NCBI GenBank assembly: GCA_046758525.1
Contig: JBHIAL010000001.1
Span: 667 to 64,666 of the forward strand
Direction of reading: 5' to 3'
DNA length: 64,000 nt
Origin: a bacterium
GTDB taxonomy: Bacteria; Aerophobota; Aerophobia; Aerophobales; AE-B3A
Under the pieces are notes generated by a model. That model saw only the letters and a list, made by a program, of their open reading frames with translations, did not search any database and was not told the origin of the DNA. Shown here piece after piece: positions 1,483-49,190 of this stretch. The position numbers and the translations under genes were made by a program. Positions within the stretch are counted from its first letter, which is position 1. Each line of letters starts with the position of its first letter.

Positions 1483-3021
1483 ATGAACGCTAAAAAATTC
1501 TCTTCTTTTACGCCACTCAGAAGTCTCAATGATAGAGATTCACTTCTTTTATATAAGGATAATCCTTGTCAATTCCTTGAAGAACAAGTTGTAATTGGTA
1601 CTAACGTTATATTACCAGAGAATATAGACAATTACTACAAGGTTGGCAACAGGATTCTATTGAAGCTTGAGCCTTTTCAAAAGAAATTTATTGACGCAAT
1701 CATATTAACCAGAGACAAGAATGGTTACAGATATTATGATGAAGCTGTGCTTGCTATAGGAAAGAAGAATGGCAAAAGTAGCCTTGCATCCTATATAGCG
1801 ACTTACCTGTTTTTTATGGATAGGGAAGAAGAGTCTGATTATATATTCTCATCCAACTCAAAAGACCAAGCGGATATTCTTGCATTTGGTAATTTTAAAC
1901 GAATCTGTTACCACAGCCCTAACCTGAAAGATAAAACGGACAGATTTAAGTCTTATGTTCAGCGCAAGAATTCTGAAATCAAGGCATATCCCGTCCCTTA
2001 TGCAGAGGCATCCAATCATGGCGTTATGAACCTTGCTTTTGTAAGCCATGATGAGGCTTGGGGTTACGCTGATGATTCTGCTTATACAGCATTAACAAGG
2101 AACTTTGCCAAGAATGAATTTCTGGCGTTAACCACATCCTATGCAGGATATAATAAAAACTCTGTTTATTATCAACTTTATGATAGGTGTAAAAAAGCAA
2201 ACAGTGCAAAGACATATTTCAAATCCTATGAGTGTACCATAGACGACCCACAATTTTGGAAAGATGCCAACCCTGCATCTTGGGTTACCTTGGAAAAGTT
2301 AATGCACCAAAAGGAGCGTTTACATGATAATCAATTTAAGCGTATGCACCTAAATATGTGGGCGAGTTCTGACAGTTCAACGAAGATGCAGCAATTTGTA
2401 ACCGAAGAGCAGGTTATGGCAGTAACAAACCCCGATTTAGCTCCCACAGAGATAGGGGGAGATTCCGATTTCTATGTGTGTGGCGTTGATTTGGGGCTTG
2501 TCCATGATAATACGGCTGTTGCAGTCATGCACACAAAAGGCAGTAAATTAATACTTGATAGATTGGATGTATTTTCAGGAACAAAGGAGAACCCTGTTGA
2601 CATCGTAAAGTTAGAAAACTATTTGAAGGAATTAAGGGTACGTTATGGATGTGTTTTTGTAATTGACCCTTGGCAAATGGCGCAAACACTACAAAAATTT
2701 GTTACTCTTTATGGGAGTGATGTAGTTAATGAGGTCTCATTTAGGAAGGTAAATGCAGAATTGACTGAACTTCTTTGCAGGGTGATTAAAACCAAGGAAA
2801 TAGAGTTTTATCCGAGGGCGGGGTTGCACTATGACCAAAAAGGGAATGAATTTACATTGCAACAAGAGTTGGCTGACCTTTATGTTAAGTGGACTAATGG
2901 CACTATTCGGTTTGACCATGAATACAACAAGAAATCTGATATGGCTGTGGCAGTTGCTATTTGTGTCTTGAAATTGGTTGGGTGTTCTCAATACAGCCCA
3001 CCAAGAATCAGAAGACTTTGA
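1483..3021 (+). CDS. terL: terminase large subunit (TerL)
   Basis: 512 aa. Walker A-like GKKNGKSSL. Acidic Walker B region VSHDEAWGY. C-terminal RNaseH-like nuclease segment GVDLGLVHDNTAVAV. Position is at the head of the structural module. Confidence 0.8.
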   Translation: MNAKKFSSFTPLRSLNDRDSLLLYKDNPCQFLEEQVVIGTNVILPENIDNYYKVGNRILLKLEPFQKKFIDAIILTRDKNGYRYYDEAVLAIGKKNGKSSLASYIATYLFFMDREEESDYIFSSNSKDQADILAFGNFKRICYHSPNLKDKTDRFKSYVQRKNSEIKAYPVPYAEASNHGVMNLAFVSHDEAWGYADDSAYTALTRNFAKNEFLALTTSYAGYNKNSVYYQLYDRCKKANSAKTYFKSYECTIDDPQFWKDANPASWVTLEKLMHQKERLHDNQFKRMHLNMWASSDSSTKMQQFVTEEQVMAVTNPDLAPTEIGGDSDFYVCGVDLGLVHDNTAVAVMHTKGSKLILDRLDVFSGTKENPVDIVKLENYLKELRVRYGCVFVIDPWQMAQTLQKFVTLYGSDVVNEVSFRKVNAELTELLCRVIKTKEIEFYPRAGLHYDQKGNEFTLQQELADLYVKWTNGTIRFDHEYNKKSDMAVAVAICVLKLVGCSQYSPPRIRRL

Positions 3022-6482: not shown

Positions 6483-7682
6483 ATGGTGGCATCATTCATT
6501 CCTTCAATTTTAGATGAGCTTGATGATGTTGTGATAGCAGCGCCTATTGCAGGACATGTGTTAAGATATGACGGCATGGACTGGAAGAACGCTCAACTTG
6601 CCCATAGCGATTTGTCAGGCTTAGCGAATGATGACCATTCCATCTACACCTTACTTGCAGGCAGGGCTGGTGGACAGACCCTTATTGGCGGTATGGCAGC
6701 CAGCGAAAATCTTACGCTTCAGTCCACATCACATGCCACAAGGGGCAAGATACTCTTTGGTACTTCAGCTTATGACGAGGTAAATAATAGATTAGGTCTT
6801 GGTACGGTTTCACCAGCATCACTGCTTACAGTAGCAGGGAATGCCTCTATAGGCTCAGGATATACAGGTATAGCAGCGCCTGCCAATGGAATGTTGATTG
6901 AAGGTAAAGTTTGGATTGGAACCACATCCCCAACAACAAATTCAGGTGATATGCTTGTAGTACATAGAAGTTCTGCCAATAATCAATTGATAACGCTAAG
7001 AAATACACATGTGGATGGTCTCTCTTCTATAAGATTAGAGGATGAGGCTGGGGCGTTTAAAGGGGATATTGGGTATTATAATAACATAGACAAGATACGG
7101 ATAGGGGGGGCTGGAGTTCCCATGTACTTTGACGGGTCATTAGATTTATTTACTTCCGCTATCCCTGCATCGGAAGCAGACTACACAAAATTATATACAC
7201 GAGATTGGAACGGTCCTGGTACAAATGCGCTATTCATACTATGTGAAGAAAATGTTGCTCATGTTTTTGGTAGCAGTGTAGGCATCGGCACGGCTGCACC
7301 AGATTCTCAAGCAAAAGCAACAATAGCAGGCGGACTTAAAACACAAGCTGATGTAGGTGCGACCCAGTTTAATTGGTTTCCCTATGAAGGCGACTGGAGA
7401 ATCTATTTTCGGTCGCCCGTACAAGTTGATGACGAAATGAAATTTGGGACTACTGGTGTATGGGGAGTTGGCAGCAATGTTGGTATTGGGACCCTTACTC
7501 CAGCCGCATCAGCGCAGCTTGAAATGGTATCTACGTCAAAAGGCTTCTTGCCTCCTCGCATGACGGAAGTACAGCGAGATGCAATATCAAGCCCTGCAGC
7601 AGGACTTGTGGTTTATGTTACTGATGGCACAAATCCAAATAAACTCCACTTTTATAATGGCACGGCATGGGGAGTAGTGTAA
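6483..7682 (+). CDS. fiber-like structural protein with repeated xGIGT(x)P motifs
   Basis: 399 aa. N-terminal HSDLSGLANDDHSIY. Three copies of a motif common in phage tail-fiber repeats: LGLGTVSPASL, VGIGTAAPDSQ, VGIGTLTPAAS. Confidence 0.5.
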   Translation: MVASFIPSILDELDDVVIAAPIAGHVLRYDGMDWKNAQLAHSDLSGLANDDHSIYTLLAGRAGGQTLIGGMAASENLTLQSTSHATRGKILFGTSAYDEVNNRLGLGTVSPASLLTVAGNASIGSGYTGIAAPANGMLIEGKVWIGTTSPTTNSGDMLVVHRSSANNQLITLRNTHVDGLSSIRLEDEAGAFKGDIGYYNNIDKIRIGGAGVPMYFDGSLDLFTSAIPASEADYTKLYTRDWNGPGTNALFILCEENVAHVFGSSVGIGTAAPDSQAKATIAGGLKTQADVGATQFNWFPYEGDWRIYFRSPVQVDDEMKFGTTGVWGVGSNVGIGTLTPAASAQLEMVSTSKGFLPPRMTEVQRDAISSPAAGLVVYVTDGTNPNKLHFYNGTAWGVV

Positions 7683-8053
7683 ATCCCGACGGAACGAATG
7701 AGGTAAAGATTATGATTAAAGTAACAAGACATGAAATTACAAAAGACAAAAATAATAATATTATCAGGGGCGTTATAGGAATTACTTACATCGACACAGT
7801 AACTGGCAAATCTGCATATAGAGACAGGGTGTGGACGGTGGGCAGTCCTGATTCAGATTTCCCCACCGTGCCTACAAAGGCAGAGTTTAGGGCTGCTGTC
7901 AAGTCATGGCTAACTGCTATACCTAAAGATGGTCAATCTATTTTACAAAGTATAAAAGCTTCTATACGAAAAGAAGTAGAAGAATCAATTACGGTGTTTA
8001 AACCAGGAGACCCTGGGTCTATGGTGAATGAAGAAATACAGGAGCCGGTATGA
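7667..8053 (+). CDS. hypothetical protein
   Basis: 128 aa, overlapping the preceding gene by 16 nt. Confidence 0.35.
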   Translation: MGSSVNPDGTNEVKIMIKVTRHEITKDKNNNIIRGVIGITYIDTVTGKSAYRDRVWTVGSPDSDFPTVPTKAEFRAAVKSWLTAIPKDGQSILQSIKASIRKEVEESITVFKPGDPGSMVNEEIQEPV

Positions 8054-8109
8054 GCGAGAATAAGATTAAAGTCAAAGCTGAAACTCCCTTGTGAGGCGGA
8101 AAGTTTGAT

Positions 8110-8301
8110 ATGAAATGTCCTGAGTGTGAGCATGTTAAAACTTGTATTGTAAAGGAATATTTATCTCCTTTAGGCGTTGTGGTTTTTAGGATTCGTGAAT
8201 GTCAAAAATGCAAAACAAAATTTGAGACTACCGAGACAGTAGCATTTTATAATGAACGCAATAAAGGGTTTAAAGGGGTACAAATGCGTTTGCTTTATTA
8301 A
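8110..8301 (+). CDS. zinc-finger small protein
   Basis: CPECEH...CQKCK. Confidence 0.35.
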   Translation: MKCPECEHVKTCIVKEYLSPLGVVVFRIRECQKCKTKFETTETVAFYNERNKGFKGVQMRLLY

Positions 8302-8315
8302 TGGCAGGAAATTAA

Positions 8316-8672
8316 ATGGACAACAACAAGATTAAAGTCAAACTGGAACAGATTAAAAACATCGATAAGGATGGAAAGAGCATTAAAGATAAAGAAGGCA
8401 ATTTGATTTACATCAGGCACGATGCGATTGCCCTATCGCAACTGATAAATGCCGTTGACAGCAAGGTAGTCGCTACTGGCGAATATCCTGCATGGATAGC
8501 GCTTGATGATAAAAGTAGAGAGGCGTTAAAGCAAGATAGGGATGAAATTGAATTGACAGTTGACGAGGCATCCTTTTTGAAGAAACTATTTAGTAATCCC
8601 CAAAATGATAGAGTTACTTTGGGGGTATTCCATGTTAGAACGATTAACGGAATTTTGGAGCAACTAAAATAA
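8316..8672 (+). CDS. hypothetical protein
   Basis: 118 aa. Confidence 0.35.
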   Translation: MDNNKIKVKLEQIKNIDKDGKSIKDKEGNLIYIRHDAIALSQLINAVDSKVVATGEYPAWIALDDKSREALKQDRDEIELTVDEASFLKKLFSNPQNDRVTLGVFHVRTINGILEQLK

Positions 8673-9529
8673 TGCCTTATACATTACTCTTGGCGGTTGG
8701 TTTTGGTTCAACAAAAACAGGGCTTGCTACTGTTGGCTATCAGTTGAAGAACGCTGATGCTACTAATAACGGTACAAGAATTACGGCTGGTATAGTGGAA
8801 GTTGGCAATGGCTACTATCAAGCGTCTGTGTCAATCCCTGATACGCATAGCGGTGGCATTCTCTGGGATACTGGAGAGGCAACGCCAAAGTACGTTTATC
8901 AGGACATTAATCCTGGGGTGGACGAATACACTGATGCAAAGATTTCATCAAGGGCGGTAGGTATGGGAACAGGCGTAAATACCGTTACGATAACCTTAAC
9001 AGAGACAGGCGGGACGCCTGTGATACCAGGTGCAACTGTGTCAGTGAAGAATCAGGCTAATGATACTCTACTTGCAACAGGAACAACAGATGCGAACGGG
9101 CAGGTAGTGTTCATGCTTGATAATGGCACATATTCTGTTGACAAGCAGAAGCTTGGCAGTTACAGCTTCACGAATCCTGAAACCCTTGTTGTTAGTGGCA
9201 ACACCAATCAAAGCTACATCGGCACGCCAATAAGCGTGAGCGCACCTGCACAGCCGAACACGTGCAGAATGTTCATCTGGGCAAGGAATCTTGACGGGAC
9301 ACTTATGACAACGCTCACTGGCAATGTTACAATCATCAAATTGCCCTATACCACGTCAGGCGCTGCTTACCAGAAAGATGACACTATATTTATATTACAT
9401 GCAGATGGTTATTTTTATGTGGACGTAGTTTATGGAGCAACCATTAGTATTTATATACCAGTTCTTGGGGTTGATACCACTCTTGTAGTTCCGTCTCAAA
9501 CTACATACGACCTTGATACCTTAATTTAA
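8672..9529 (+). CDS. structural protein with carboxypeptidase-regulatory-like or Ig-like beta-sandwich domain
   Basis: TVTITLTETGGTPVIPGATVSVKNQANDTLLATGTTDANGQVVFMLDNGTYSV is a typical CarboxypepD_reg-like segment. Confidence 0.4.
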   Translation: MPYTLLLAVGFGSTKTGLATVGYQLKNADATNNGTRITAGIVEVGNGYYQASVSIPDTHSGGILWDTGEATPKYVYQDINPGVDEYTDAKISSRAVGMGTGVNTVTITLTETGGTPVIPGATVSVKNQANDTLLATGTTDANGQVVFMLDNGTYSVDKQKLGSYSFTNPETLVVSGNTNQSYIGTPISVSAPAQPNTCRMFIWARNLDGTLMTTLTGNVTIIKLPYTTSGAAYQKDDTIFILHADGYFYVDVVYGATISIYIPVLGVDTTLVVPSQTTYDLDTLI

Positions 9530-9645
9530 GATAATAGAGGTGATGAATACTATTGCAAAATCATATCTTATATCTGAAAAAGAGAATTCTATCTGTACCA
9601 AGATAAAAAACTACCAAGAATTATTGTTTTAGCATAGGAGCGAAT

Positions 9646-10365
9646 TTGTTGTCTAACAGTATAGTTGATGCTAAAACCATTTCAATTATCCTTCCCACCC
9701 GTAAGCGGGTTAGGAATTTAACACGCCTGATAGATTCTATCATTCAAACAAGTAAATATCCTTCTAACATAGAGATTTGTATCCGTGTTGACCATGACGA
9801 TATGGAATCTGCCTTGGCATTAATTCCTTATTCTGACAAAATAACTATAAAAGTTTGTATTGGCTCCAGGGAAAAATGTTATGGCCATTACTGGAATGAC
9901 GCATGGAGATTAGCCACGGGGGATGTCTTACAAATGAGCGGTGATGATTTTATATACAGAACCAAGGATTGGGATGTTGAGATTCTCAAAGAAATAAATA
10001 AGTTCAATGATAAGATGGTTTTTGTCTATGGTAATGATGGATTTCAGCACGGTAATCTGGGAACTCATTTTTTTATCCATCGTAGATGGGCAGATGCGTT
10101 GGGGGAGTTTGTGCAGATGCACACTAACGTATTTTACCACGACACATGGGCGGATGTTTTGGCAACAAGAATAAATAGAAGAATGTACAGAGATGACCTT
10201 TTCTTTGAGCATGTCCATTGGGTAACTGGTAAAACAGGTAAGGATGTAATTTACGAAACCGCTCAAAAGAATGCAGAATCGGACGCCAGAATATGGGAAG
10301 CAAATTGGCAAGGCCCAGCCATGCAGAGTGATGTCGCCAAATTAAAAAGATTACTGAATGAATAA
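9646..10365 (+). CDS. glycosyltransferase family 2-like
   Basis: TTG start with SD AGGAG. N-terminal ISIILPTRKR resembles the GT2 opening strand. Acidic motifs DHDD and GDD follow. Confidence 0.5.
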   Translation: MLSNSIVDAKTISIILPTRKRVRNLTRLIDSIIQTSKYPSNIEICIRVDHDDMESALALIPYSDKITIKVCIGSREKCYGHYWNDAWRLATGDVLQMSGDDFIYRTKDWDVEILKEINKFNDKMVFVYGNDGFQHGNLGTHFFIHRRWADALGEFVQMHTNVFYHDTWADVLATRINRRMYRDDLFFEHVHWVTGKTGKDVIYETAQKNAESDARIWEANWQGPAMQSDVAKLKRLLNE

Positions 10366-10930
10366 TGTTTTGTCATTATTAATATGTTCCTTAACCAAAA
10401 GGGAATCATCCCTCAGAGAACTTTTATCCTGTTTATCTCCCCAATTGGTAGAGGGAGTGCAGATTCTGGTTAATTCGGATAATGGGAGGAAAGCTGTAGG
10501 GCAAAAAAGGAACGAACTATTAAGAGGCGCAACAGGGAAATATGTTACATTCATAGACGATGACGACCTTGTAAGCGATGATTATGTTTTTCTGATTCTG
10601 GATGCAATCAGGAATGATTGTGATGTTGTTGGCATACATCTTCTTATGACAACCAATGGAATCAAGAATAGCGAATGCAGGACATATCATTCACTCAAAT
10701 ATAAATCATGGTGGGATGAGGAAGACCCAGACAGACCAGGAAGGAGGCGGTATTTCAGGAATCCAAATCATCTGAATCCAGTAAAAAGAGACCTTGCCCT
10801 TGCTACACAGTTTATTGAAATAGATTATGGAGAAGACCACGATTATAGCAAAAGGCTTCTGCCTTTATTGAAAACAGAGGTAAATATAAACGAACCAATC
10901 TATTACTATCAGGTTAAGGGCGTGGAGTAA
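10358..10930 (+). CDS. glycosyltransferase family 2-like
   Basis: YVTFIDDDDLVSDDY is a DXD-type motif. There is an 8-nt overlap with the upstream gene. Confidence 0.5.
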   Translation: MNNVLSLLICSLTKRESSLRELLSCLSPQLVEGVQILVNSDNGRKAVGQKRNELLRGATGKYVTFIDDDDLVSDDYVFLILDAIRNDCDVVGIHLLMTTNGIKNSECRTYHSLKYKSWWDEEDPDRPGRRRYFRNPNHLNPVKRDLALATQFIEIDYGEDHDYSKRLLPLLKTEVNINEPIYYYQVKGVE

Positions 10931-10940
10931 AGGAGTATTT

Positions 10941-11630
10941 GTGGAAGTAATGATTAACCAATCGGCAGGGCTTGGTGATATTTTCTTCTGCCAGAAAATT
11001 GCTATGAAACTTATGGAACTTGGTTATGAAGTTTATTGGCCTGTTATTGAAGAATATAGATATATAAGTAATTATATACATAATGGTGTTATATGGAGAA
11101 TGAGCGAAAAAAAACGTAATGAAATTTATAAATTAGACCTTAGCCATTCTACCAATTATTTTAGGTTCAAGCACAATCAACAGCTTAATGATAATATCAT
11201 GCAAGCTAAATACAAGTATGCAAACAGTCAATTCTCATTTGCAATTGGTGGGTGGGAAGATTGGCAGGATTATCTTAAAATAACAAGAAATTCCGAAGAG
11301 GAGAAAGAACTCGAAGATATTATCCTGAACGGCGTCCCCGACAAGTTTGCGCTTGTGTGCAACCATTTTGCAACTAACTATCTCACTCTCAATAAGAGTA
11401 TAGAATCTGACTTACCAACAGTGGAGATTATCAAGATTCCTAATGTGCCTATTTTTAGTTGGTGCGGAATTATTGAGAAGGCCTCCGAAATAAGAATACC
11501 AGATTCAAGTTTTCCATATCTTGTTGAGGTACTGAATACAACAGATAACCTCTATCTTTATAATAGAAACTACGAATCTAATATACGAACCAAGCCTATA
11601 TGGAAGAAGGGATGGACATTCGTGGAATGA
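10941..11630 (+). CDS. hypothetical protein, possible GT-B/GT9-like transferase
   Basis: AGLGDIFF resembles the GLGD signature of heptosyltransferase-like enzymes. The evidence is weak. Confidence 0.3.
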   Translation: MEVMINQSAGLGDIFFCQKIAMKLMELGYEVYWPVIEEYRYISNYIHNGVIWRMSEKKRNEIYKLDLSHSTNYFRFKHNQQLNDNIMQAKYKYANSQFSFAIGGWEDWQDYLKITRNSEEEKELEDIILNGVPDKFALVCNHFATNYLTLNKSIESDLPTVEIIKIPNVPIFSWCGIIEKASEIRIPDSSFPYLVEVLNTTDNLYLYNRNYESNIRTKPIWKKGWTFVE

Positions 11631-12568
11631 CATTTCTTATCACAGGAATATCTGGCTTTGTTGGTCCCTATTTAGCGAGTCATCTATTAGAGAGGGGACA
11701 TATCGTGTATGGGTTGGCTCACACTAAAACAGACAAGTGTGCGAAAGGTGTGAAATATCTACATGGGGATTTACGTAATATAAATGATTTAGTATCTTTA
11801 CAATCATACAATTTTGCTGGTGTTTTTCATCTTGCAGCATTAACTCACCCACCAACATCATTCAAGGAACCCAGATTGTATTTTGAAACAAATGCACTTG
11901 GGACTGTGAATTTATGCGAAGTCCTTGGAGAAAATAGTATAATTATGCAGTGCAGTAGTCCAGAAGTCTATGGGGTGTGCCCACAAAGAGAAATATTTGA
12001 GTCATTCCCAATGAACCCTGTTTCTCCCTATGCTGTTTCAAAGGCAGCATCTGATTTATATATTCTTGAGCGGACAAAAAGTAAAAGATTAAAGGCATTC
12101 ATTACACGGGCTGGGTCGCATACTGGAGCAGGCAGGCCTTCTTGTTATTCTATTTCTTCAGATGCTGCCCAAATAATAAGAATTAAAAGAGGCTTGCAGA
12201 AGCCTGTACTCAGGGTAGGAAATATTAATTCCCAGAGGGCTGTGATGGATGTTCGAGATGTGGTTGCAGCTTATTATAAATTAATGATTAAATATATACT
12301 GGGGGGAATAAGGAATGGAGATATTTTTCATATAAGTGGGCATAATTTACAGACAATAGAGTATTATATTGACCTTATGATGAATTTGGCAAATGTTAAA
12401 GCGGAAAAGGTAGCTGATAAAAATCTCGTGCGAAGGATAGATATTCCTGTACAGATATTAAACAGTGATAAAACTCGCTCTATTATTTCGTGGAAGCCAA
12501 AAATTCCTATTGAGGAAACTCTTGGAGAGCTACTTGATTATTGGGAGAAGATTATAGATGGGAATTAA
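11627..12568 (+). CDS. GDP-mannose 4,6-dehydratase / GDP-4-keto-6-deoxymannose reductase family (Gmd/Rmd-like extended SDR)
   Basis: Rossmann motif TGISGFVG. Catalytic YAVSK (YxxxK). LRVGNINSQRAVMDVRDVV matches the Gmd-family LRxGNLxAxRDWGxAxDYV block. Translationally coupled to the upstream gene by an ATGA overlap. Confidence 0.65.
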   Translation: MTFLITGISGFVGPYLASHLLERGHIVYGLAHTKTDKCAKGVKYLHGDLRNINDLVSLQSYNFAGVFHLAALTHPPTSFKEPRLYFETNALGTVNLCEVLGENSIIMQCSSPEVYGVCPQREIFESFPMNPVSPYAVSKAASDLYILERTKSKRLKAFITRAGSHTGAGRPSCYSISSDAAQIIRIKRGLQKPVLRVGNINSQRAVMDVRDVVAAYYKLMIKYILGGIRNGDIFHISGHNLQTIEYYIDLMMNLANVKAEKVADKNLVRRIDIPVQILNSDKTRSIISWKPKIPIEETLGELLDYWEKIIDGN

Positions 12569-13610
12569 AGATATTGACTCACATAAGCTGAATTACCATC
12601 CTGAAAGAGTAGCCCAATGGAAGAGTACGGGTTTTTGTTATCCCCTTCATATGGAAGTTGGAATAACTAATGAGTGCAATCACAGGTGTAAACAATGCAC
12701 GCTGGATTGGATAAATCATGGGCAGGATTCTCTTGATGCCCAGATTCTTGTTGAGACATTAAAGGAAGCAAGCAGTCTTGGAGTTAAATCTGTTTACTTT
12801 GCGGGGGAGGGTGAGCCAACTCTTCACAGAGCTTTGGGTTTGTTTGCAAGAACAGCGCATGATTTGGGAATAAAAGTGGCGCTTTCAACCAATGGGTCTT
12901 GTTTATCTACCTTAAAGGATACATTACCCTACTTATCGTGGTTAAGGTTTAGTGTTGATGCCGCAACCGCAGAAACATTCTCAAAAATCCATCGAGTAGA
13001 ACTTTCTGAATTTGATAAGGTTATTTCCAATATAAAGCAATGCGTAGATGTGGTTAAAAATGAGGATTATAAAGTACAGATTGGTATTCAGTCCCTCCTA
13101 ATGCCAGAAAATATAAATGAGATTGAGCCACTTGCCAACATTGCCAAGAATATAGGGGCGCATAATTTCCAAGTGAAACCTGCTCATTGCCACCCTAAAA
13201 GCTCTTATCAGATAACACCCCGCCAGCATTTACAAGATGGGATGCAACAAAGGCTTGAGAAGTTAAACAGTAATACTTTTACAACAATAGTAAGGATTAG
13301 AAGCTTGGAAAGGTTAGGTCAACCCAGAACTTATAATGAATGTCATGCGTTTAACTTCTATTGTCTCATTGATGCTTGTGGAAATTTGTCCCCTTGTAAT
13401 GTTTTTTATGGAAAAGATAATTATATATTTGGTAATATTTATAAGGACAGTCTTCAAGAGATTTGGTCAAGCGACAAGAAGAGAATAATAATAAAGCAAA
13501 TAGCTGAGCTTAAACATTCACTGTGTAAAGATTACAGATGCAGACAGGATGTAATGAATAGGTATCTTGAAAGAGTGAAGAATCCAGAGATTAACGATGA
13601 GTTTATTTAG
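12558..13610 (+). CDS. radical SAM enzyme with C-terminal SPASM/twitch-like Cys cluster
   Basis: CNHRCKQC is a Cx3Cx2C motif. GEGEP is a SAM-binding-like motif. The C-terminal CHAFNFYCLIDACGNLSPC supplies auxiliary-cluster cysteines. Confidence 0.7.
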   Translation: MGIKDIDSHKLNYHPERVAQWKSTGFCYPLHMEVGITNECNHRCKQCTLDWINHGQDSLDAQILVETLKEASSLGVKSVYFAGEGEPTLHRALGLFARTAHDLGIKVALSTNGSCLSTLKDTLPYLSWLRFSVDAATAETFSKIHRVELSEFDKVISNIKQCVDVVKNEDYKVQIGIQSLLMPENINEIEPLANIAKNIGAHNFQVKPAHCHPKSSYQITPRQHLQDGMQQRLEKLNSNTFTTIVRIRSLERLGQPRTYNECHAFNFYCLIDACGNLSPCNVFYGKDNYIFGNIYKDSLQEIWSSDKKRIIIKQIAELKHSLCKDYRCRQDVMNRYLERVKNPEINDEFI

Positions 13611-13621
13611 GAGTAGAATGA

Positions 13622-14590
13622 ATGATTAAAAAGACGGTCTTGGTATGTGGAGCGGGGGGTTTTATAGGCAATCATCTTGTAAAGCGCCTGAAAAAAGACG
13701 GTTATTGGGTAAGGGGAGTGGATTTGAAATACCCAGAATATTCAAAAACTGAAGCGGATAATTTTGTTGTTGGTGATTTAACAGATATTACTTTTTGTCG
13801 AGGGATAATGGATAGACAATTTGATGAGGTATATAACCTCGCTGCTGATATGGGGGGAGCTGAGTATGTATTTACAGGCGATAACGATGCTAATATTATG
13901 TCCAATTCAGTAATGATTAATCTAAACATACTGAATACTTGTTATAAGAGAAACATAAAGCGCCTTTTTTATTCCTCTTCAGCGTGCTGCTATGCAGAAC
14001 ACAACCAGTTAGACCCACATAATCCAAAATGTTCTGAAGATTCTGCCTATCCTGCTAATCCTGACTCTGCCTATGGTTGGGAAAAACTGTTTAGTGAGCG
14101 TCTTTATAATGCCCATCATAGAAATTGTGGTATGGAAGTTAGGATTGGTCGCTATCATAATGTGTTTGGTCCCGAATGTACTTGGTTTGGAGGGAAGGAA
14201 AAAGCACCTGCTGCACTATGTAGGAAAGTGGCTGAAGTTGAATCTGGAGGAGGAATAGAGATATTTGGGGATGGGAAACAAACAAGGTCTTTTCTCTACA
14301 TTGATGAGTGCATTGAAGGTACTATCAGGCTTATGAAGTCGGATTATAATGAACCCATTAACATAGGCTCGGATGAAATGATAACAATAGACGAATTAGC
14401 CAAAAAGATAATGACTATTGCCAAGAAGGAATTAAAAATCAGGCATATAGATGGGCCTCAAGGGGTTAGGGGCAGAAACTCAGATAATACACTGATTAAA
14501 AAGGTCTTAGGCTGGGCTCCATCTGCTTCTTTGGATGAGGGGCTTAGAGTAACATATGACTGGATTTCAAAAAGGAGGGATATAACATGA
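13622..14590 (+). CDS. GDP-mannose 3,5-epimerase homologue (GME family)
   Basis: Block-by-block resemblance to plant GDP-mannose 3',5'-epimerase as I recall it, not an alignment I ran: GAGGFIGNHL; NLAADMGG; SSACCYAE; DSAYGWEKL; RIGRYHNVFGP; GGKEKAPAALCRK; GDGKQTRSF.YIDECIEG; NIGSDEMITI; GPQGVRGRNSDNTLIKKVLGWAP; EGLRVTYDWI. Confidence 0.75.
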   Translation: MIKKTVLVCGAGGFIGNHLVKRLKKDGYWVRGVDLKYPEYSKTEADNFVVGDLTDITFCRGIMDRQFDEVYNLAADMGGAEYVFTGDNDANIMSNSVMINLNILNTCYKRNIKRLFYSSSACCYAEHNQLDPHNPKCSEDSAYPANPDSAYGWEKLFSERLYNAHHRNCGMEVRIGRYHNVFGPECTWFGGKEKAPAALCRKVAEVESGGGIEIFGDGKQTRSFLYIDECIEGTIRLMKSDYNEPINIGSDEMITIDELAKKIMTIAKKELKIRHIDGPQGVRGRNSDNTLIKKVLGWAPSASLDEGLRVTYDWISKRRDIT

Positions 14591-16725
14591 CAGTCGAACA
14601 TACTATTATAATACCTCTGACCACTAACCTTTGTAACTTGAGAGAAACCATAAAGAGTGTAAATGAATACTCAGAAGACCACGAGATTCTGGTTATTGTA
14701 GATGATAGACAAAAGGTAGAATCAGAAATTGTAAAAACTATGGCATCTGTAGTTTGCAAAAAATCTACAATTGGGGAGGCTCTTAATGCTTGCATAGATT
14801 CAGCCAATGGAAAATACATTACAATCTTGAAGGATAATGCACTTGTTTCTCCTAATTGGCTAAATAAACTAAAAAGAACCTTTTTGCTCCCATCTTACAG
14901 ACCAGTTACAATAGCTGCGCCAATTCTGAGTCATACAGTATTTAGTGTCCAACAATGTGAATTCAGTCTGACATCTGGTAATTATATAAAAGCCTTGGAA
15001 GAGCGTAAGTTTAATTATGGATACACTCTTGCAAATCTGGTTTCGGATGTGTGTATTATGTTTGAGAGGACAAATGGGGTGCGCTTTAATGGGACGCTAA
15101 ATTCAGGTGAGATATTTGACGTGGTAGTAAGGAACACGCTCTCTGGAAATATATGTGCAATTAATAAGGGCGTTTTCATATTTGATAAGAGTCCAATAAC
15201 AAAACTTGATAATCTATCAAAGAGTATTATTGCTGTAGCCAAGATACATAACAGGTATCTCACAAGACCCCAAACAATACTGGGGGTAATAAGAACCAAA
15301 ATAACAAATGATTTTGACGCTGAAATATTCAAAATGGTATTGGATAAAACTAAGAGTCTTGTTGATAAAATACTTGTTCTCAATGAGGGACAGGAGTATC
15401 CTTTTGACCTGATAGGAGATATAAATAAACTGGATGTGTCTGAATCAATACATAACGAGAAAGCTTCCGAAGCAATAATCGACAGAATTGAAGAACTTAA
15501 TTGCGACTGGATTTTACACCTGAATGAAAAAGAAGTTTTAGAGGAGTCTATTACAAGGAAGGATTTGGACAGACTTATTTATAACCCTAACCCCCTTATT
15601 CATGGATATGTTTTTCAGGATTATCTATTTGAGGGGACGGACAATAACTACACAGCAAGTCAAGATTCCACCAAGACTGTAGTCCCCAATCTATTCAGAT
15701 ATATTCCAAATAGTAAGCATAGAAATTTTGCTATGCTCTTAAAGATGACTGAAGACTCTTTATGTGTATCAAGCATGAGATATAAACAGTATATAGAGCC
15801 AGCTAAAAATAAACCTGTCTTTACAACGAAGATGTGGAATGCAAATAATAGAATTGACATATGTACTATTATGAAAAATGAGGAGGCCAAATTATTCTGG
15901 TACATGCACAGACATTTTGGCTTTGCCAACAATGTTATACTTATTGACACAGGTTCTACGGACAGCTCCATAGAGTTGGCGAGATTGTTAGGAGCTATTG
16001 TTTATGAAGAAAGGGACGGCTCTAAAGATTTTGCACGAGCAAGGAATACCTATCTCAATAAATCATCTTCAGAATGGATTTTTCATGTTGATTTGGATGA
16101 ATATTGCAGTGATTTGACAGGCATAAGGAAATTGACTGAAGGTACTTGTGATAACTGGTTATTCAAGATTCAAAACAGGCGGAAGGATGGCTCCACTCCT
16201 ACAAGCGAAACCATCAGGCTGTTTCGTAATAAAGAAGGATTATCTTATAAGGGTATAATACATGAAATACTTGATACGCCGAAACCCCCTGCATATTCGC
16301 CCATAATTCTAATCAATGAAGGATTCTTGGAAGATGATGATGTCGTTGCAAGGAAGGTAAAAATGTATCTGGATATGTGCATGATGAGAATCAAACAAGA
16401 CCCAGAGGATGTTCAGGCATTATACTCAGTTGGGATTCATTTGGCAGATGATAATAGATATGAGCTTGCAATAGCAATGCTCAACAAGGCGGTAAGATTG
16501 ATGAGTGAATGGCACTTGCCAAAGAAGGAACTGGCAGTTACATATCTGCATTTTGGTAAACAATTATATAAAGAGCTTGTTGATATGTTGCCTGCCCACC
16601 ATCCTGACAGACTGGAATATGTAAAAGTATTTGAGTTTCTAAACAACGCATTCAAACCAAGAATAATAGATGTTGTCAGTATTACAAAAGATATATCTGA
16701 CGAGGATATAATGAAGATTTTATAA
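14587..16725 (+). CDS. multidomain glycosyltransferase: N-terminal GT-like domain, central GT2 domain, C-terminal TPR-like repeats
   Basis: 712 aa. ICTIMKNEE...LIDTGSTD...DLDEY is a GT2 signature. The C-terminus is helical and repeat-like (ALYSVGIHLADDNRYELAIAMLNKAV). ATGA overlap with the epimerase gene. Confidence 0.55.
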   Translation: MTVEHTIIIPLTTNLCNLRETIKSVNEYSEDHEILVIVDDRQKVESEIVKTMASVVCKKSTIGEALNACIDSANGKYITILKDNALVSPNWLNKLKRTFLLPSYRPVTIAAPILSHTVFSVQQCEFSLTSGNYIKALEERKFNYGYTLANLVSDVCIMFERTNGVRFNGTLNSGEIFDVVVRNTLSGNICAINKGVFIFDKSPITKLDNLSKSIIAVAKIHNRYLTRPQTILGVIRTKITNDFDAEIFKMVLDKTKSLVDKILVLNEGQEYPFDLIGDINKLDVSESIHNEKASEAIIDRIEELNCDWILHLNEKEVLEESITRKDLDRLIYNPNPLIHGYVFQDYLFEGTDNNYTASQDSTKTVVPNLFRYIPNSKHRNFAMLLKMTEDSLCVSSMRYKQYIEPAKNKPVFTTKMWNANNRIDICTIMKNEEAKLFWYMHRHFGFANNVILIDTGSTDSSIELARLLGAIVYEERDGSKDFARARNTYLNKSSSEWIFHVDLDEYCSDLTGIRKLTEGTCDNWLFKIQNRRKDGSTPTSETIRLFRNKEGLSYKGIIHEILDTPKPPAYSPIILINEGFLEDDDVVARKVKMYLDMCMMRIKQDPEDVQALYSVGIHLADDNRYELAIAMLNKAVRLMSEWHLPKKELAVTYLHFGKQLYKELVDMLPAHHPDRLEYVKVFEFLNNAFKPRIIDVVSITKDISDEDIMKIL

Positions 16726-17003
16726 ACAATCGGAGAAATTGCTTGACATTTTAATTATTTGTGTTTTTATTATGTGTAAGTGAGTATGCTAACGCAGTTT
16801 ACAATTGAAAAGATTAAAAGGGTTGTACAAGAGGAGGAGTCAAGAATCACTAACAACGATTTCTGTGGTTCTATAAGTATTAAACTGAATTTTCTTCATG
16901 GTTTGGTAAGGACGGTCGAAACATCCATAAACCAACATGAGCAACTCAAGAACTAAAATTTAAAATATATTAAAAATCTCATTAGCTTTACCAAAGCCTG
17001 AGA

Positions 17004-17046
17004 TGGGTAATTAATCTACCTGTCTTGGGCTTTTTTATTGGAATAA
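17004..17046 (+). terminator. possible rho-independent terminator (G·U-containing stem plus T tract)
   Basis: AGCCUGAGAUGGG pairs with CCUGUCUUGGGCU as RNA in a 13-bp stem with 4 wobble pairs, followed by UUUUUAUU. This is weak and lies immediately before the portal ATG. Confidence 0.25.
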
Positions 17047-17047
17047 A

Positions 17048-18358
17048 ATGCAAATAACACAAAAAATAAGAAACTTTCTTAGAACAAAAGCCAATAGAGC
17101 ATTGGGGCTTATGATTTATCCTTGGATGGACAATAGCGGGATAAAGATGGATTGGCGAACAAAGGATTATATAGATTTGTATGGTAAATCCGATTTTTCC
17201 AATGCTGTGGTTCATGGGACAGTGAAAGAGCTTGCATTGGCTATTGCCAATTGCGATTTGAAATTTTATCGAAAGGTAAGAAAGAAAAAATTAAAGAAAT
17301 TGACCCGTACTCACCCCCTTGTAGATTTATTCTGGAATGTTAATCCTGTTACAACCAGATTTGATTTTTGGGAATCTCTTGTTGTCTATTTGCAATTGGC
17401 AGGCGAAGCCCCTGTAGCATTAGAGCGACTGAATAAGTTAGACCAACCTAAAGAACTATGGACTTTAAGACCCGATTTTATTCGTGTAATTCCAGACGCT
17501 AAAAATTTTGTTAGGGGGTATCTGTATGAGACTGGTGTGGGACGGGTTGGCTACCTCCCCAACGAATTAATATTTTTTAAGCATTTTAGCCCAACAGAAA
17601 CATGGAGAGGGCAGTCCCCCTATGCTGCTGCAAGACAAGAACTTATATCTGAATATTATAGAAGTAAATATAATATCGAATTCTTCAAACAAGGCGCAAG
17701 TCCTTCTGGAGTATTCTCCACAGATAGGACATTAGACAATGATACGTTTAAGAGACTTCAGAAAGAGCTTGAGATGGCTTACTCAGGCGTTAATAAGGCG
17801 CACAGACCAATGTTACTTGAAAGCGGATTGCAATGGACTCGAATAGGAGTGAGCCCAAAGGATGGTGATTTTATACAACAACACGCCTTGAACAATGAAG
17901 CAATTGCAGGTGTTGTGAATGTGCCCCCTCAATTTGCCTTTGGGGGCAATTCATTCAGATACGGAAATGTTCAAACCACAAAGGAACAAGCCAAGATGTT
18001 TTGGGGGATTACGATAAAGCCCCTAATCAGAAAAATAGAGGAGTATTTAAATACTTTCCTTGTAAAGAGATATGGTAATGATTTGATTGCCAAGTTTGAT
18101 TTAAGTGAAATTGACGCTATCAACGATACAAATGTTGAAAAGAGTATTGTTGCAAGAAGAATGGTAGAAATAGGTATCTGGACTCCAAATGAAGCAAGAA
18201 AGATATTGTGGAATATGGAAGAAACAGAAGACGGAAATGGCGATACAAGATATGTACCAGGTAATTTAATTGATGCCAATTCGGAATCGCAGATACCTGA
18301 TGAACCTGATAATGGTAAACTTTTGGAGAGGCACGAAAATGAACGAATTTATATATAA
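17048..18358 (+). CDS. portal protein
   Basis: 436 aa. Called mainly by synteny (portal, protease, then MCP) and size. Confidence 0.55.
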   Translation: MQITQKIRNFLRTKANRALGLMIYPWMDNSGIKMDWRTKDYIDLYGKSDFSNAVVHGTVKELALAIANCDLKFYRKVRKKKLKKLTRTHPLVDLFWNVNPVTTRFDFWESLVVYLQLAGEAPVALERLNKLDQPKELWTLRPDFIRVIPDAKNFVRGYLYETGVGRVGYLPNELIFFKHFSPTETWRGQSPYAAARQELISEYYRSKYNIEFFKQGASPSGVFSTDRTLDNDTFKRLQKELEMAYSGVNKAHRPMLLESGLQWTRIGVSPKDGDFIQQHALNNEAIAGVVNVPPQFAFGGNSFRYGNVQTTKEQAKMFWGITIKPLIRKIEEYLNTFLVKRYGNDLIAKFDLSEIDAINDTNVEKSIVARRMVEIGIWTPNEARKILWNMEETEDGNGDTRYVPGNLIDANSESQIPDEPDNGKLLERHENERIYI

Positions 18359-19513: not shown

Positions 19514-20779
19514 ATGACTGAACCAAAAGAGCCACAGGAAAAAGACTTAGCTACACAACTCGAAGAAAAGGTTTCAGAGTTGGAGGCCAAAAAGAAAGAA
19601 GAAGTTGAAAGGAAAATTAAGGAGAAGGAGGATGCTGTAAAAATAGCTGAAGGCATGAAGGAATTCAAGGGCTTAAATGATAAGCTAACCAAAGAACTTG
19701 AGGCATTGAAGGAGCAGCAAGGTAATATAAAGGAAAGTGTTGAAAGGGATAGGGAAGAAAGAAAGCTTCGTTTCGACACTACTAAAGAGGTCAATGAGAG
19801 TGCCCCAAATAGTAACAAAGGGAGCGAGTTTAGTTTTGCTCGATTTTATAACGCTATAGCACATAAGAACATGAATCTTGCTCCTTACGAGTTTAAGGCT
19901 TTGGGGGAAAGCACAGGTTCGGGGGGTGGTTTTATAGTACCAGAGGAATACCTTGGCGATTTAAGGGATAGAATTACAGCGCAGTCAGTTGTTAGAGGAA
20001 TGGGACCTACTGTCTATCCTATGGTATCTGATACTCTGTTAGTACCAAAGATAACAGGCGGGGCTACAGCCGTTTGGGTGGGGGAGAATGCACAAATTAC
20101 TGAAAGCCAAAACACATTTGGACAACTTCAGTTAATAGCAAAGTTGTTGGCAGCCCTTGTCAAAGTAAGTAATCAATTGATTTCTGATTCTAATCCTGCT
20201 GTTGAGACTGCTGTTAGAAAGGATACGGTAAAGGTTCTTGCGCTTGCCGAGGATATTGCATTCTTGGGAGGCTCTGGTTCGGCTAACCAACCAACAGGTA
20301 TCATAAATACTACTGGTGTAGCAGAGGTTACTCTTGGGGCAAATGGGGCAACGCCTACATTTGATAATATTTATGACACACTCTATCAGGTGGAGTTGGC
20401 TAATGGCGTAGCAAGCGGTTGGGTTATGCACCCAAGAACAAAAAACACATTGACAAAGATTAAGGATTCCAATGGTCAATACATCTACAATGTAAGTCCA
20501 AGTATCAAGGAGCCAGATACACTTGTAGGTTTGCCTGTAAAACTAACCACCCAAGTTCCAATCAATCTTACTGTGGGCAGTTCTTCAGACTGTTCTTATG
20601 TAATCTGCGCCCAATGGGATGAGGCTGTGATTGGGGAAAGAGCAGGCATTGAGTTTGCTGCTGATACATCTGGGACTGCTTTTGAGTTTTACCAGACTTG
20701 GATTAGGGCAATTGAAAGAATTGATTTTGGGTTAAGGACACCAGAAGTGTTCTGTAAAATGACTGGCGTAAGACCTTAA
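19514..20779 (+). CDS. major capsid protein, HK97 fold, with N-terminal delta/scaffold domain
   Basis: The N-terminal ~110 aa are a charged coiled coil (EEKVSELEAKKKEEVERKIKEKEDAVK). The rest has HK97-MCP size and composition. It follows the protease and is followed by a strong terminator. Confidence 0.7.
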   Translation: MTEPKEPQEKDLATQLEEKVSELEAKKKEEVERKIKEKEDAVKIAEGMKEFKGLNDKLTKELEALKEQQGNIKESVERDREERKLRFDTTKEVNESAPNSNKGSEFSFARFYNAIAHKNMNLAPYEFKALGESTGSGGGFIVPEEYLGDLRDRITAQSVVRGMGPTVYPMVSDTLLVPKITGGATAVWVGENAQITESQNTFGQLQLIAKLLAALVKVSNQLISDSNPAVETAVRKDTVKVLALAEDIAFLGGSGSANQPTGIINTTGVAEVTLGANGATPTFDNIYDTLYQVELANGVASGWVMHPRTKNTLTKIKDSNGQYIYNVSPSIKEPDTLVGLPVKLTTQVPINLTVGSSSDCSYVICAQWDEAVIGERAGIEFAADTSGTAFEFYQTWIRAIERIDFGLRTPEVFCKMTGVRP

Positions 20780-25392: not shown

Positions 25393-25658
25393 TCGGTGGC
25401 AAGCGGATAACCCAGATTGCGAAGACTCCATCAGGAAGATTGGTTAATGAGGATATACCAATCCCTTTCTACATAGAAGATATAGTTTTTGAGGCTTTTC
25501 TTTGCTACAAAATGGGTAAATTATTCAGAGATGGCGGGCTAAAAGCACAAAGATACAAGGAGTTACAAGTGCTATATTTGGTAATCCAATACATAGACAG
25601 AAAGTACATCAATGATTGGTGTGAAGTTCTTTTTGGTTCAAAGGACAGTAAAAAATAA
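25368..25658 (+). CDS. -1 frame extension giving the G-T-like chaperone fusion (about 263 aa total with 24868..25368)
   Basis: See the slippery site above. The track ORF 25440..25658 is the ATG/TTG-anchored part of this frame. Confidence 0.5.
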   Translation: MEHAIEKLIGGKRITQIAKTPSGRLVNEDIPIPFYIEDIVFEAFLCYKMGKLFRDGGLKAQRYKELQVLYLVIQYIDRKYINDWCEVLFGSKDSKK

Positions 25659-37432: not shown

Positions 37433-37443
37433 GGGTTTAATAT

Positions 37444-41148: not shown

Positions 41149-41166
41149 AATAAGGAGTTAAATATC

Positions 41167-49076: not shown

Positions 49077-49112
49077 TTAACCACGCTCTCCCATTTAATA
49101 TCGTGAAAAATC

Positions 49113-49190
49113 TGGTCAGGGAGGGAGGATTTGAACCTCCGACCTCCTGCTTCCAAGGCAGGCACGCTAACCAGACTGCGCTACTCCCTG
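49113..49190 (-). tRNA. tRNA-Pro (anticodon TGG) with encoded CCA
   Basis: Reverse complement reads CAGGGAG-TA-GCGC-AGTCTGGTTA-GCGT-G-CCTGC-CTTGGAA-GCAGG-AGGTC-GGAGG-TTCAAAT-CCTCC-CTCCCTG-A-CCA. This is a full cloverleaf with a 7-bp acceptor stem, a T-loop TTCAAAT and a UGG anticodon. Confidence 0.8.

Follow-up and report, generated by a model that had tools for sequence, protein, structure and literature searches.

The window, by which we mean the whole 64,000-nucleotide stretch analysed here, belongs to a ~77 kb siphovirus-like phage; the phage nature of the DNA is absent from the preliminary description of it. Positions 9646–16725 of its forward strand hold one tightly packed operon (the cassette), with gene junctions of −31 to +11 nt. 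In order, the genes encode two GT2 glycosyltransferases, a GT9-like transferase, an Rmd/DmhA-like SDR (SDR1), a radical SAM enzyme, an orthologue of GDP-mannose 3,5-epimerase (GME) and a double GT2 protein. A terminator-like hairpin with a 17-bp stem and a T-run (16993–17033, same strand) closes the cassette ahead of the portal gene. The promoter scan was uninformative (34 sites against 34.3 expected).

The first two products, GT2a (9646–10365; PHROG 14945) and GT2b (10358–10930; PHROG 14775 and 8858), both match Pfam Glycos_transf_2 and are syntenic in the loci L087, L088 and L089. The third, unk229 (10941–11630), had no match in Pfam, NCBIfam or PHROG. Its AF2 model (pLDDT 91.5) resembles a compact GT-B glycosyltransferase nearest to the GT9 heptosyltransferases; the top eight Foldseek matches were all GT9 (3tov, WaaC), though weak (E 2e-5 to 4e-3, TM 0.40–0.59), with TibC next, and the protein is ~100 residues shorter than GT9 enzymes. 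In L088 it is fused in frame to SDR1. The last gene (14587–16725; PHROG 13126), the start of which overlaps the GME stop (ATGA), encodes 712 residues with two GT2 domains in Pfam (6–97 and about 440–508) and a SunS-like/TPR-like C-terminal part, the match to the NCBIfam SunS family of peptide S-glycosyltransferases being weak and far below its cutoff (E 5.5e-10).

The radical SAM gene had been described as embedded between two GDP-sugar SDR genes, and both neighbours are indeed extended SDRs of the GDP-sugar type. Upstream, SDR1 (11600–12568), whose stop overlaps the radical SAM start by 11 nt, falls by its motifs and PDB matches (7us5, E 4e-43; 2pk3, E 2e-39; 6x3b, E 1e-33) into the DmhA/Rmd clade. 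The best match is a GDP-D-glycero-D-manno-heptose 4,6-dehydratase, and Rmd GDP-4-keto-6-deoxymannose reductases also match. The motifs CSSPEVYG (Ser-x-Glu) and YAVSK (YxxxK) are common to 4,6-dehydratases and 4-ketoreductases and, as the best match is itself a dehydratase, the two functions are not separable by sequence. Orthologues of SDR1 (42–66% identity) occupy position −1 in every phage-clade locus of the radical SAM family, and we propose SDR1 as its putative ketoreductase partner; besides SDR1, Pfam and NCBIfam identified no reductase, aminotransferase or other ketone source in the cassette. Downstream, the GME orthologue (13622–14590) matches Arabidopsis GME (2c59) with E 1.5e-96, and its SSAC, YGWEK and GGKEKAPAA align with the catalytic motifs SSAC, YGLEK and GGREKAPAA of the plant enzyme.

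The radical SAM gene itself (12558–13610) encodes 350 residues. The open reading frame is real, far beyond chance, because one identical protein and hundreds of full-length homologues were found (E down to 1e-241), and its assignment is confirmed by Pfam, with Radical_SAM (PF04055) at residues 36–194 (E 7e-14) and SPASM at 262–328 (E 1e-8). The sequence CNHRCKQC, previously pointed out as the CX3CX2C motif, lies at residues 40–47. Alignment of 225 family sequences showed exactly seven conserved cysteines: C40, C44 and C47 of this motif (99%), C262 and C280 (both 100%), and two further ligand candidates, C323 and C328 (CKDYRC). There is no conserved cysteine in this alignment besides these cluster ligands; C27 reaches 44% and is missing from the SDR1-linked marine clade. 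GEGEP at 83–87, a GGE-type SAM-binding motif, is invariant. The C-terminal cysteine cluster given in the preliminary description, CHAFNFYC...CGNLSPC, needs correction: both strings are present and contain the conserved C262 and C280, but C269 (9%) and C274 (7%) are not conserved, and C323 and C328 had not been listed.

A full SPASM domain has the seven-cysteine motif CX9-15GX4C ... CX2CX5CX3C ... C and two auxiliary clusters. The CX12GX4C element is present in our protein, whereas the CX2CX5CX3C block is not, only four C-terminal cysteines being conserved, and the Pfam SPASM match spans the half-motif common to SPASM and twitch domains. The twitch domain is an abridged SPASM domain with a single auxiliary cluster, as defined in PMC10470005. 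Because the family conserves exactly 3 + 4 cysteines, one auxiliary cluster is predicted, and the auxiliary domain is of the four-cysteine twitch type, not a seven-cysteine SPASM domain. The SPASM label originally attached to the gene therefore holds as regards an auxiliary cluster, but not for the full domain.

Structure prediction, suggested earlier as a check, gave an AF2 model (pLDDT 89.8) with a radical SAM fold, which superposes on radical SAM structures with TM 0.56–0.70 (partial TIM-barrel core). Foldseek matched it to SuiB, DesII, BlsE, SkfB, viperin and anSME, and a search of the viral structures in BFVD gave generic radical SAM matches only. The likeness to characterised enzymes is in all cases remote (≤20% identity, about 45–50 bits). 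The top match is the RiPP maturase SuiB (E 1e-17) which, with the SunS-like region of the 712-residue glycosyltransferase, might point to a peptide or protein maturase of the sactisynthase, PqqE, SuiB or anSME type that modifies a phage or host protein, maybe with the SunS-like transferase. We consider this hardly credible. The NCBIfam peptide maturases scored 33–45 bits where their cutoffs are 265–850 (AlbA 33 against 850, PqqE 38 against 381), only one auxiliary cluster is possible where anSMEs have two, and there is no RRE domain, since the radical SAM core begins at about residue 33. The narrow gene junctions leave no space for a precursor peptide gene, none of the window ORFs scanned matched a sulfatase, and sugar genes surround the family in >100 loci.

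The N-terminal half of the protein scores 70 bits with prokaryotic viperin in NCBIfam (cutoff 180, residues 36–188 only) and 56 bits with MoaA (cutoff 284), and both enzymes are among the structural matches. On this basis the enzyme could be thought to act on a free nucleotide or DNA precursor, like viperin, MoaA or QueE, or the cassette to glycosylate phage DNA instead of proteins; hypermodification of phage DNA by glycosyltransferases is known (work cited in PMC12619734). We regard this as very improbable: the scores are below cutoff and reflect the generic radical SAM core only, the scanned ORFs of the window gave no sign of a hydroxymethylase, of deazaguanine genes or of any other gene for DNA modification, and in other phages the cassette lies inside the structural module. 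QueE was not among the best 25 NCBIfam matches. We conclude that the enzyme is none of these, neither QueE nor a peptide maturase, anSME, MoaA or viperin; for the last four the NCBIfam scores are all far below the cutoffs. The preliminary description had set peptide-maturase, anSME-type and QueE-like enzymes against a role on sugars, and the sub-cutoff scores, the missing RRE domain and the lack of room for a precursor gene speak for none of them. C-methylation, one of the reactions put forward originally, is unlikely, and was rejected, because Pfam identified no cobalamin-binding or methyltransferase domain in the protein. A BlsE-like decarboxylase is also unlikely; Pfam and NCBIfam identified no uronic-acid-forming dehydrogenase in the window.

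The remaining similarities are to radical SAM enzymes of sugar and aminocyclitol metabolism. The best single-sequence PDB match is BtrN (E 2.6e-5, ~15% identity, TM 0.39–0.54, profile 45 bits), the twitch dehydrogenase that acts on 2-deoxy-scyllo-inosamine in the butirosin pathway. The two enzymes have in common the CX3CX2C motif and an abridged SPASM domain with one four-cysteine auxiliary cluster; C262, C280 and C323 align with three of the cysteines of this cluster in BtrN, and BtrN acts on a carbohydrate-like carbinol. They differ in the last cysteine pair (CX2C in BtrN, CX4C here), in the substrate, since BtrN uses an aminocyclitol and not a nucleotide sugar, and in the SDR partner, which BtrN lacks; judged by sequence, they are not orthologous. 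DesII, a TDP-4-amino-4,6-dideoxyglucose deaminase/dehydrogenase, and BlsE, a cytosylglucuronate decarboxylase, are also among the best matches (Foldseek E 1e-15 and 1e-14, profile 38–49 bits, 14–17% identity) and act on nucleotide-linked sugars. Their domain sizes, C-terminal architecture and chemistry (deamination, decarboxylation) are different, and the window is without aminotransferase or uronic-acid genes.

The family comprises 1,738 clusters at 50% identity and is found in DPANN archaea, methanogens, sulfate reducers, Omnitrophota, anammox bacteria and their (metagenomic) phages. It is without a characterised member or a close solved structure, and a literature search in sugar-nucleotide, heptose, GDP-mannose 3,5-epimerase and transketolase contexts returned no publication on it. 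Of 113 non-redundant loci, 101 have a partner enzyme that uses keto-sugars no more than five genes away, be it a split transketolase, another ThDP enzyme, DegT or SDR1. In cellular genomes this is mostly the split transketolase (63 of 80 loci), while GmhA or HldE is present in 12–16 of the 80 and any SDR otherwise able to supply a ketone in only 24. The split transketolase could merely provide sedoheptulose-7-phosphate, though it is far commoner beside the radical SAM gene than GmhA/HldE. Fusions occur as well: three clusters have a CTP_transf-like nucleotidyltransferase attached, and other fusion partners are DegT, an ALS-type ThDP enzyme and a SIS/GmhA-like domain. Given the sugar context in >100 loci, these fusions and the sub-cutoff maturase scores, we predict that the family is dedicated to tailoring nucleotide-activated sugars, and this prediction is well supported. 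It bears out the core of the original proposal, that the enzyme modifies a GDP-sugar, with the proviso that it may act on a nucleotide-heptose and not on a GDP-hexose, as the GT9-like partner, the family-wide link to GmhA/HldE and the best match of SDR1 indicate.

In phages the radical SAM enzyme is coupled to an SDR, and elsewhere to ThDP and DegT enzymes, which suggests that its product is a carbonyl compound. We tentatively favour, at a little under an even chance, a pathway in which a nucleotide keto-sugar arises through an oxidation like that of BtrN or a dehydration like that of AprD4 and is then reduced by SDR1 to a rare sugar for a glycan likely to be on the virions. The enzyme would hold one SAM-cleaving [4Fe-4S] cluster and one fully cysteine-ligated auxiliary [4Fe-4S] cluster, and the 5'-deoxyadenosyl radical would remove a hydrogen at a carbinol position in a manno-configured nucleotide sugar supplied by the host, candidates being GDP-mannose, GDP-L-galactose or ADP/GDP-glycero-manno-heptose. 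The substrate radical could then pass an electron on to the auxiliary cluster, for a two-electron oxidation of a secondary alcohol to a ketone like that by BtrN, a route to which the keto-sugar-using partners lend indirect support; or it could expel a neighbouring hydroxyl, as with AprD4. Either route would yield a keto-sugar. Using NAD(P)H, the translationally coupled SDR1 would reduce the ketone, the result being a sugar that is deoxygenated or epimeric, the GME orthologue would supply or further epimerise a GDP-L-sugar, and the GT9-like and GT2 transferases would assemble the rare-sugar glycan, most likely on the virion proteins of the adjacent structural genes.

The radical SAM dehydratases AprD4 and viperin are not known to need an auxiliary cluster, nor is AprD4 known to have a conserved one, and NAD-dependent SDRs can epimerise C4 by themselves. 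These two points leave the need for radical chemistry unaccounted for in the favoured pathway. [quoted passage not shown] The pair here is likewise translationally coupled and conserved, with the reductase role of SDR1 putative; the AprD4 substrate is a pseudodisaccharide, not a nucleotide sugar.

The order of the two steps could also be the reverse, with SDR1 acting first as a DmhA/GMD-like 4,6-dehydratase and the radical SAM enzyme then working on a nucleotide 4-keto-6-deoxy sugar, for example in a C-3 deoxygenation, a rearrangement or ring contraction, or the formation of a C-C bond. The gene order, SDR1 before the coupled radical SAM gene, is as expected for such a sequence of reactions, as are the 4,6-dehydratase that is the best PDB match of SDR1 and the occurrence of DesII, with its TDP-4-amino-4,6-dideoxy sugar, among the structural matches. 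We think it unlikely nonetheless, since a 4-keto sugar would find no further ketoreductase, and no aminotransferase, in the cassette to complete it, and since the marine viral clusters already own a separate RmlB/LegB-like dehydratase along with an aminotransferase and a formyltransferase. Most cellular members are without a nearby SDR, and the family is therefore not dependent on a dehydratase.

Some radical SAM sugar epimerases are twitch enzymes, and AbmJ, HygY and NeoN rely on a residue that donates a hydrogen atom, typically a cysteine. An epimerase of this kind (like AbmJ, HygY, NeoN or AviX12) would need no partner, inverting one carbinol centre by abstracting a hydrogen and returning one from the opposite face. 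The radical tailoring of sugar stereocentres is precedented, including heptose-type sugars in the heptofuranose C3-epimerase AbmJ (PMC9978623), and, as the GME neighbour shows, the cassette has to do with the diversity of epimers. Direct epimerisation is argued against by the lack of a conserved spare cysteine as hydrogen-atom donor, C27 being kept in under half of the family sequences. Unlike these epimerases, moreover, our enzyme is coupled to a putative reductase, strictly so in phages, and the ThDP and DegT partners elsewhere again suggest a carbonyl product. We therefore judge a stand-alone epimerase to be distinctly improbable.

Phages that are otherwise unrelated share the cassette in synteny, at 50–72% identity, and an abundant ~67 kb phage has it between the capsid and tail genes. 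When the cassette was compared with 50,697 phage records by megablast, no match was obtained, and a protein search of the same records found homologues of the radical SAM enzyme at ≤26% identity only, so that no isolated phage among them has a close homologue. Ten further window ORFs, scanned against PHROG, had hardly any matches. From its gene position, the rare-sugar glycan is probably for virion glycosylation. Known systems for phage virion glycosylation use host nucleotide sugars and one or two glycosyltransferases, whereas this cassette also encodes its own sugar tailoring (GME, SDR and radical SAM enzyme). The location of glycosyltransferase genes in or beside the structural module is a feature in common with the glycosylated capsid and tail-tube of mycobacteriophages (Freeman et al. 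2023, as cited in PMC12619734).

In a wider sense, the family may be an unrecognised twitch class that provides anaerobic archaea and bacteria with an SDR-independent route to nucleotide keto-sugars, which would feed transamination and the branching or extension of chains by ThDP enzymes. Its capture by phages, along with a dedicated ketoreductase and a minimal transferase of GT9-like type, would have made a mobile cassette for the decoration of virions with a rare sugar, possibly one derived from a heptose. We put this forward as a possibility, and a somewhat doubtful one. To our knowledge, the only radical SAM enzymes known to tailor sugars come from a few antibiotic pathways. The reaction of this family, once known, would help to explain how anaerobes make unusual surface sugars and would add a new type of reaction to glycan biosynthesis. 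If the proposal is true, whole pathways of sugar tailoring, oxygen-sensitive radical chemistry included, can be encoded by phages, which probably use them to glycosylate their own particles; this bears on phage–host recognition and on the immune recognition of therapeutic phages.

The open reading frame at 12558–13610 (+) encodes a protein of 350 aa, here called rSAM, which carries the radical SAM motif CNHRCKQC at residues 40–47 and matches the Pfam domains Radical_SAM (residues 36–194, E = 7e-14) and SPASM (residues 262–328, E = 1e-8). A 76.9 kb NCBI MAG contig encodes an identical protein, and full-length homologues (~350 aa, 40–71% identity) number in the hundreds; the reading frame and its motif, as given in the preliminary description, are thus genuine well beyond chance. 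Cysteine conservation, followed first in an alignment of 36 sequences and then in 225 distinct family members, gives exactly seven conserved positions in both, C40, C44 and C47 being found in 99% of the 225 and C262, C280, C323 and C328 in 100%. The extra C-terminal cysteine cluster noted initially therefore holds for C262 and C280 but not for C269 and C274, which are kept in 9% and 7%, and the CKDYRC pair, C323/C328, had not been listed. The C-terminal pattern is CX12GX4C, followed ~42 residues on by CX4C, and lacks the CX2CX5CX3C block that a full SPASM domain would have. Since that block is missing, and since SPASM domains have two auxiliary clusters and twitch domains one in the definition quoted in PMC10470005, the sequence places rSAM with the twitch-type enzymes rather than under the SPASM label first applied. 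The family has no spare conserved cysteine beyond the cluster set; C27 is present in 44% and is missing from the marine phage clade. The family signature comprises an N-terminal DxHKLxYHPERVxxW, GEGEP, KPxHxHPxS, CX12GX4C...CX4CR and a C-terminal NDEFI. One member of 631 aa (P0254) is a radical SAM homologue broken by an intein (Intein_splicing plus HNH endonuclease).

None of the curated NCBIfam models comes near its cutoff with rSAM. The best is a tungsten-cofactor maturase (104 bits against a cutoff of 380), and the scores for viperin (70/180), MoaA (56/284), PqqE (38/381) and AlbA (33/850) are lower. The alignment gave a confident AlphaFold2 model (pLDDT 89.8, pTM 0.88), for which Foldseek finds only remote PDB relatives, at 20% identity or less: SuiB (E = 1e-17), DesII (1e-15) and BlsE (1e-14), with weaker matches to SkfB, viperin, anSME, PqqE, MoaA and BtrN. 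The rSAM profile gives ~45–50 bits with the PDB sequences of MoaA, BlsE, BtrN, viperin-like enzymes and anSME. Predicted viral structures offer nothing nearer than ~16% identity, and 50,697 phage records contain no homologue above 26%. As all matches found in these searches are remote, the family is without a characterised close relative. Three of the auxiliary-cluster cysteines of BtrN align with C262, C280 and C323 in phmmer.

The preliminary description had named a peptide maturase, anSME or QueE-like enzyme as the outcome that would speak against a sugar substrate, and the evidence is against each of them. A peptide or protein maturase is rejected on the lack of an RRE-sized N-terminal region and of room for a precursor gene, on the single auxiliary cluster and on family scores far below threshold. 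For anSME the number of clusters does not fit, nor was a sulfatase found among the window ORFs scanned; the similarity to viperin, MoaA or QueE is confined to the generic core. C-methylation, one form of the C-modification also suggested there, is unlikely, as rSAM has no cobalamin or methylase domain.

The gene lies within a block of seven (9646–16725), in which neighbouring genes overlap by up to 31 nt or stand at most 11 nt apart and which is closed by a terminator-like hairpin with a 17-bp stem at 16993–17033. Two GT2 genes (GT2a, 9646–10365; GT2b, 10358–10930) precede a 229-aa protein (10941–11630), an SDR (SDR1, 11600–12568), rSAM, a second SDR (13622–14590) and a 712-aa double-GT2 protein (14587–16725, +). 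The SDR1 stop and the rSAM start overlap by 11 nt. Both flanking SDRs are of GDP-sugar type, as first described. The downstream one matches Arabidopsis GME with E = 1.5e-96 and keeps the SSAC, YGxEK and GGxEKAPAA motifs, identifying it by sequence as a GDP-mannose 3,5-epimerase orthologue (GME). SDR1 is assigned to the DmhA/Rmd clade; its best match is GDP-D-glycero-D-manno-heptose 4,6-dehydratase (7us5, E = 4e-43), it also matches the GDP-4-keto-6-deoxymannose reductases 2pk3 and 6x3b, and its motifs fit dehydratase and reductase alike. The 229-aa protein has no family match in Pfam, NCBIfam or PHROG. Its model (pLDDT 91.5) is a compact GT-B fold; GT9 heptosyltransferases (3tov, WaaC) take the first eight places among its PDB matches and the protein heptosyltransferase TibC comes next, with modest scores (E = 2e-5 to 4e-3, TM 0.40–0.59). 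The C-terminal part of the 712-aa protein shows weak similarity to SunS-family peptide S-glycosyltransferases and to TPR proteins, and the protein may therefore be a protein-directed glycosyltransferase.

An exhaustive profile search at E ≤ 1e-30 gives a family of 1,738 clusters at 50% identity. Relatives occur in 484 stretches of the genome scan, the great majority in anaerobes (Pacearchaeota, Woesearchaeota, Nanoarchaeota, Methanoregula, Methanospirillum, Desulfobacterota, Omnitrophota and anammox Planctomycetota), and a viral scan yields 105. Reading frames were called in 120 loci and the neighbours clustered. Within five genes of rSAM in 80 non-redundant cellular loci we find a split transketolase in 63, usually at +1/+2, further radical SAM paralogues in 56, cobalamin-type radical SAM genes in 38, GT9-like genes in 32, any SDR in 24, HldE-like genes in 16 and GmhA-like genes in 12. 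Cellular loci of DPANN archaea, methanogens, Omnitrophota and Planctomycetota (L007–L086, e.g. L011, L019, L028) carry two to five radical SAM paralogues, cobalamin-type radical SAM enzymes, a split transketolase or ALS-type ThDP enzyme, NUDIX, GT9 and GT2, and look like an unexplored, chemically elaborate glycan pathway. In the phage clade closest to the window protein (at least 330 bits) an SDR1 orthologue (42–66% identity) is always at −1, a GT9-like gene lies within seven genes in 13/13 non-redundant loci, and transketolase is absent except in L103. Marine viral members have, beside the SDR1–rSAM pair, an HldD-like heptose 6-epimerase, split HldE, aminotransferase, formyltransferase and a separate RmlB/LegB-like dehydratase; the pair thus acts as a self-contained module. 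The 150 best representatives include fusions of the radical SAM domain with a CTP_transf-like nucleotidyltransferase (in three independent clusters), with a SIS/GmhA-like domain, with an acetolactate-synthase-type ThDP enzyme, with a methyltransferase and, in one giant protein, with a DegT sugar aminotransferase; these tie the enzyme directly to nucleotide-sugar formation and sugar-carbonyl enzymes.

Keto-sugars are substrates of ThDP carboligases, of DegT aminotransferases and of Rmd-like reductases alike. At least one such partner lies within five genes of rSAM in 101/113 non-redundant loci, the exceptions being mostly truncated contigs; most cellular loci have no SDR able to make a ketone, and the window cassette offers no candidate reductase besides SDR1 and no further source of a ketone. 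The simplest account of these observations is that rSAM would convert a nucleotide sugar to a nucleotide keto-sugar, which SDR1 would then reduce. The first step could be a BtrN-like dehydrogenation, giving the strictly conserved auxiliary cluster its role, or an AprD4-like dehydration, for which the AprD4/AprD3 dehydratase–reductase pair is a precedent (PMC5461906). Direct epimerisation, as by AbmJ (PMC9978623), is less likely because the family conserves no H-donor cysteine. SDR1 could also act first, as a dehydratase, with rSAM after it, but the 4-keto product would be left without a finishing enzyme in the window cassette.

The GME orthologue argues for a GDP-mannose-derived substrate, and a GDP-sugar is plausible. 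Glycero-manno-heptose nucleotides are suggested instead by the GT9-like transferase, by the best SDR1 match and by the association with GmhA, HldE and GT9 across the family, and the substrate is possibly a heptose rather than a GDP-hexose. Both groups of sugars are manno-configured. Of the GDP-sugar tailoring proposed initially, sugar tailoring is upheld in outline by neighbours and fusions, and its GDP-sugar part is plausible.

The setting is a siphovirus-like phage, with large terminase (1483–3021), fibre-like proteins (6483–9529), portal (17048–18358), HK97-type capsid (19514–20779), tail tube (22808–23812) and tape measure (25658–29566) on the plus strand and ribonucleotide reductase, primase, RecA, DNA polymerase A and a DnaB-like helicase on the minus strand. 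The fibre-like proteins, directly upstream of the cassette and placed unusually between terminase and portal, include one of 399 aa with a weak tail-fibre PHROG match and one of 285 aa with a carboxypeptidase-regulatory-like (prealbumin-fold) domain; they could be targets of glycosylation or serve in receptor binding. Elsewhere, an N6/N4 DNA methylase (44297–46441, +) is apparently broken by a LAGLIDADG-type domain (intein or homing-endonuclease insertion) and ends in a further methyltransferase-like part; the family A DNA polymerase (58140–60359, −) has an N-terminal uracil-DNA-glycosylase-superfamily domain before its 3'-5' exonuclease domain; the ribonucleotide reductase large subunit (47076–49190, −) contains a TSCPD domain, the sole tRNA detected, tRNA-Pro(tgg), coming after it at 49113–49190; and three large proteins after the tail genes (34877–42129, +; 851, 1234 and 320 aa) have essentially no family matches.

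The cassette is mobile. The order GT2a, GT2b, GT9-like, SDR1, rSAM, GME recurs in viral contigs L087, L088 and L089 (the last of 204 kb) at 50–72% protein identity, except for GT2a in L089 (30%), with one ORF of ~209 aa (L087, L088) or two small ORFs (L089) between rSAM and GME; the flanking genes in all three show no similarity to the window. In L088 (6761–8416) the 229-aa protein and SDR1 are fused in frame through loss of an intergenic region of ~80 nt that is present in the 99%-identical L087, where SDR1 itself is split in two (8268–10011). In an abundant phage of ~67 kb (ENA ERZ1426691, protein P0015; more than 128 contigs) a GT2–GT2–unknown–SDR–rSAM–SDR cassette lies between capsid and tail-terminator genes, and the sulfotransferase-like and APS-kinase genes after it suggest a sulfated glycan.

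From position we favour virion protein glycosylation as the end use: the window cassette shares its strand with the structural genes and lies between fibre-like genes and portal, that of the ~67 kb phage is flanked by capsid and tail genes, the transferase domains number four to five, and no DNA-modification genes were detected in the window ORFs scanned. Virion glycosylation has a precedent in mycobacteriophages (Freeman et al. 2023, cited in PMC12619734). Action on host glycans or on DNA instead is possible.

The original observation is thus confirmed and its interpretation supported in outline, with three corrections: the domain is twitch-type and not SPASM, the setting is a phage, and the sugar may be a heptose instead of a GDP-hexose. 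Sugar-tailoring radical SAM enzymes are known already, and our literature search found no published description of this family. The family is large, unnamed and without a characterised member, and is set off by a signature of its own, a distinctive partner logic and a mobile phage cassette.
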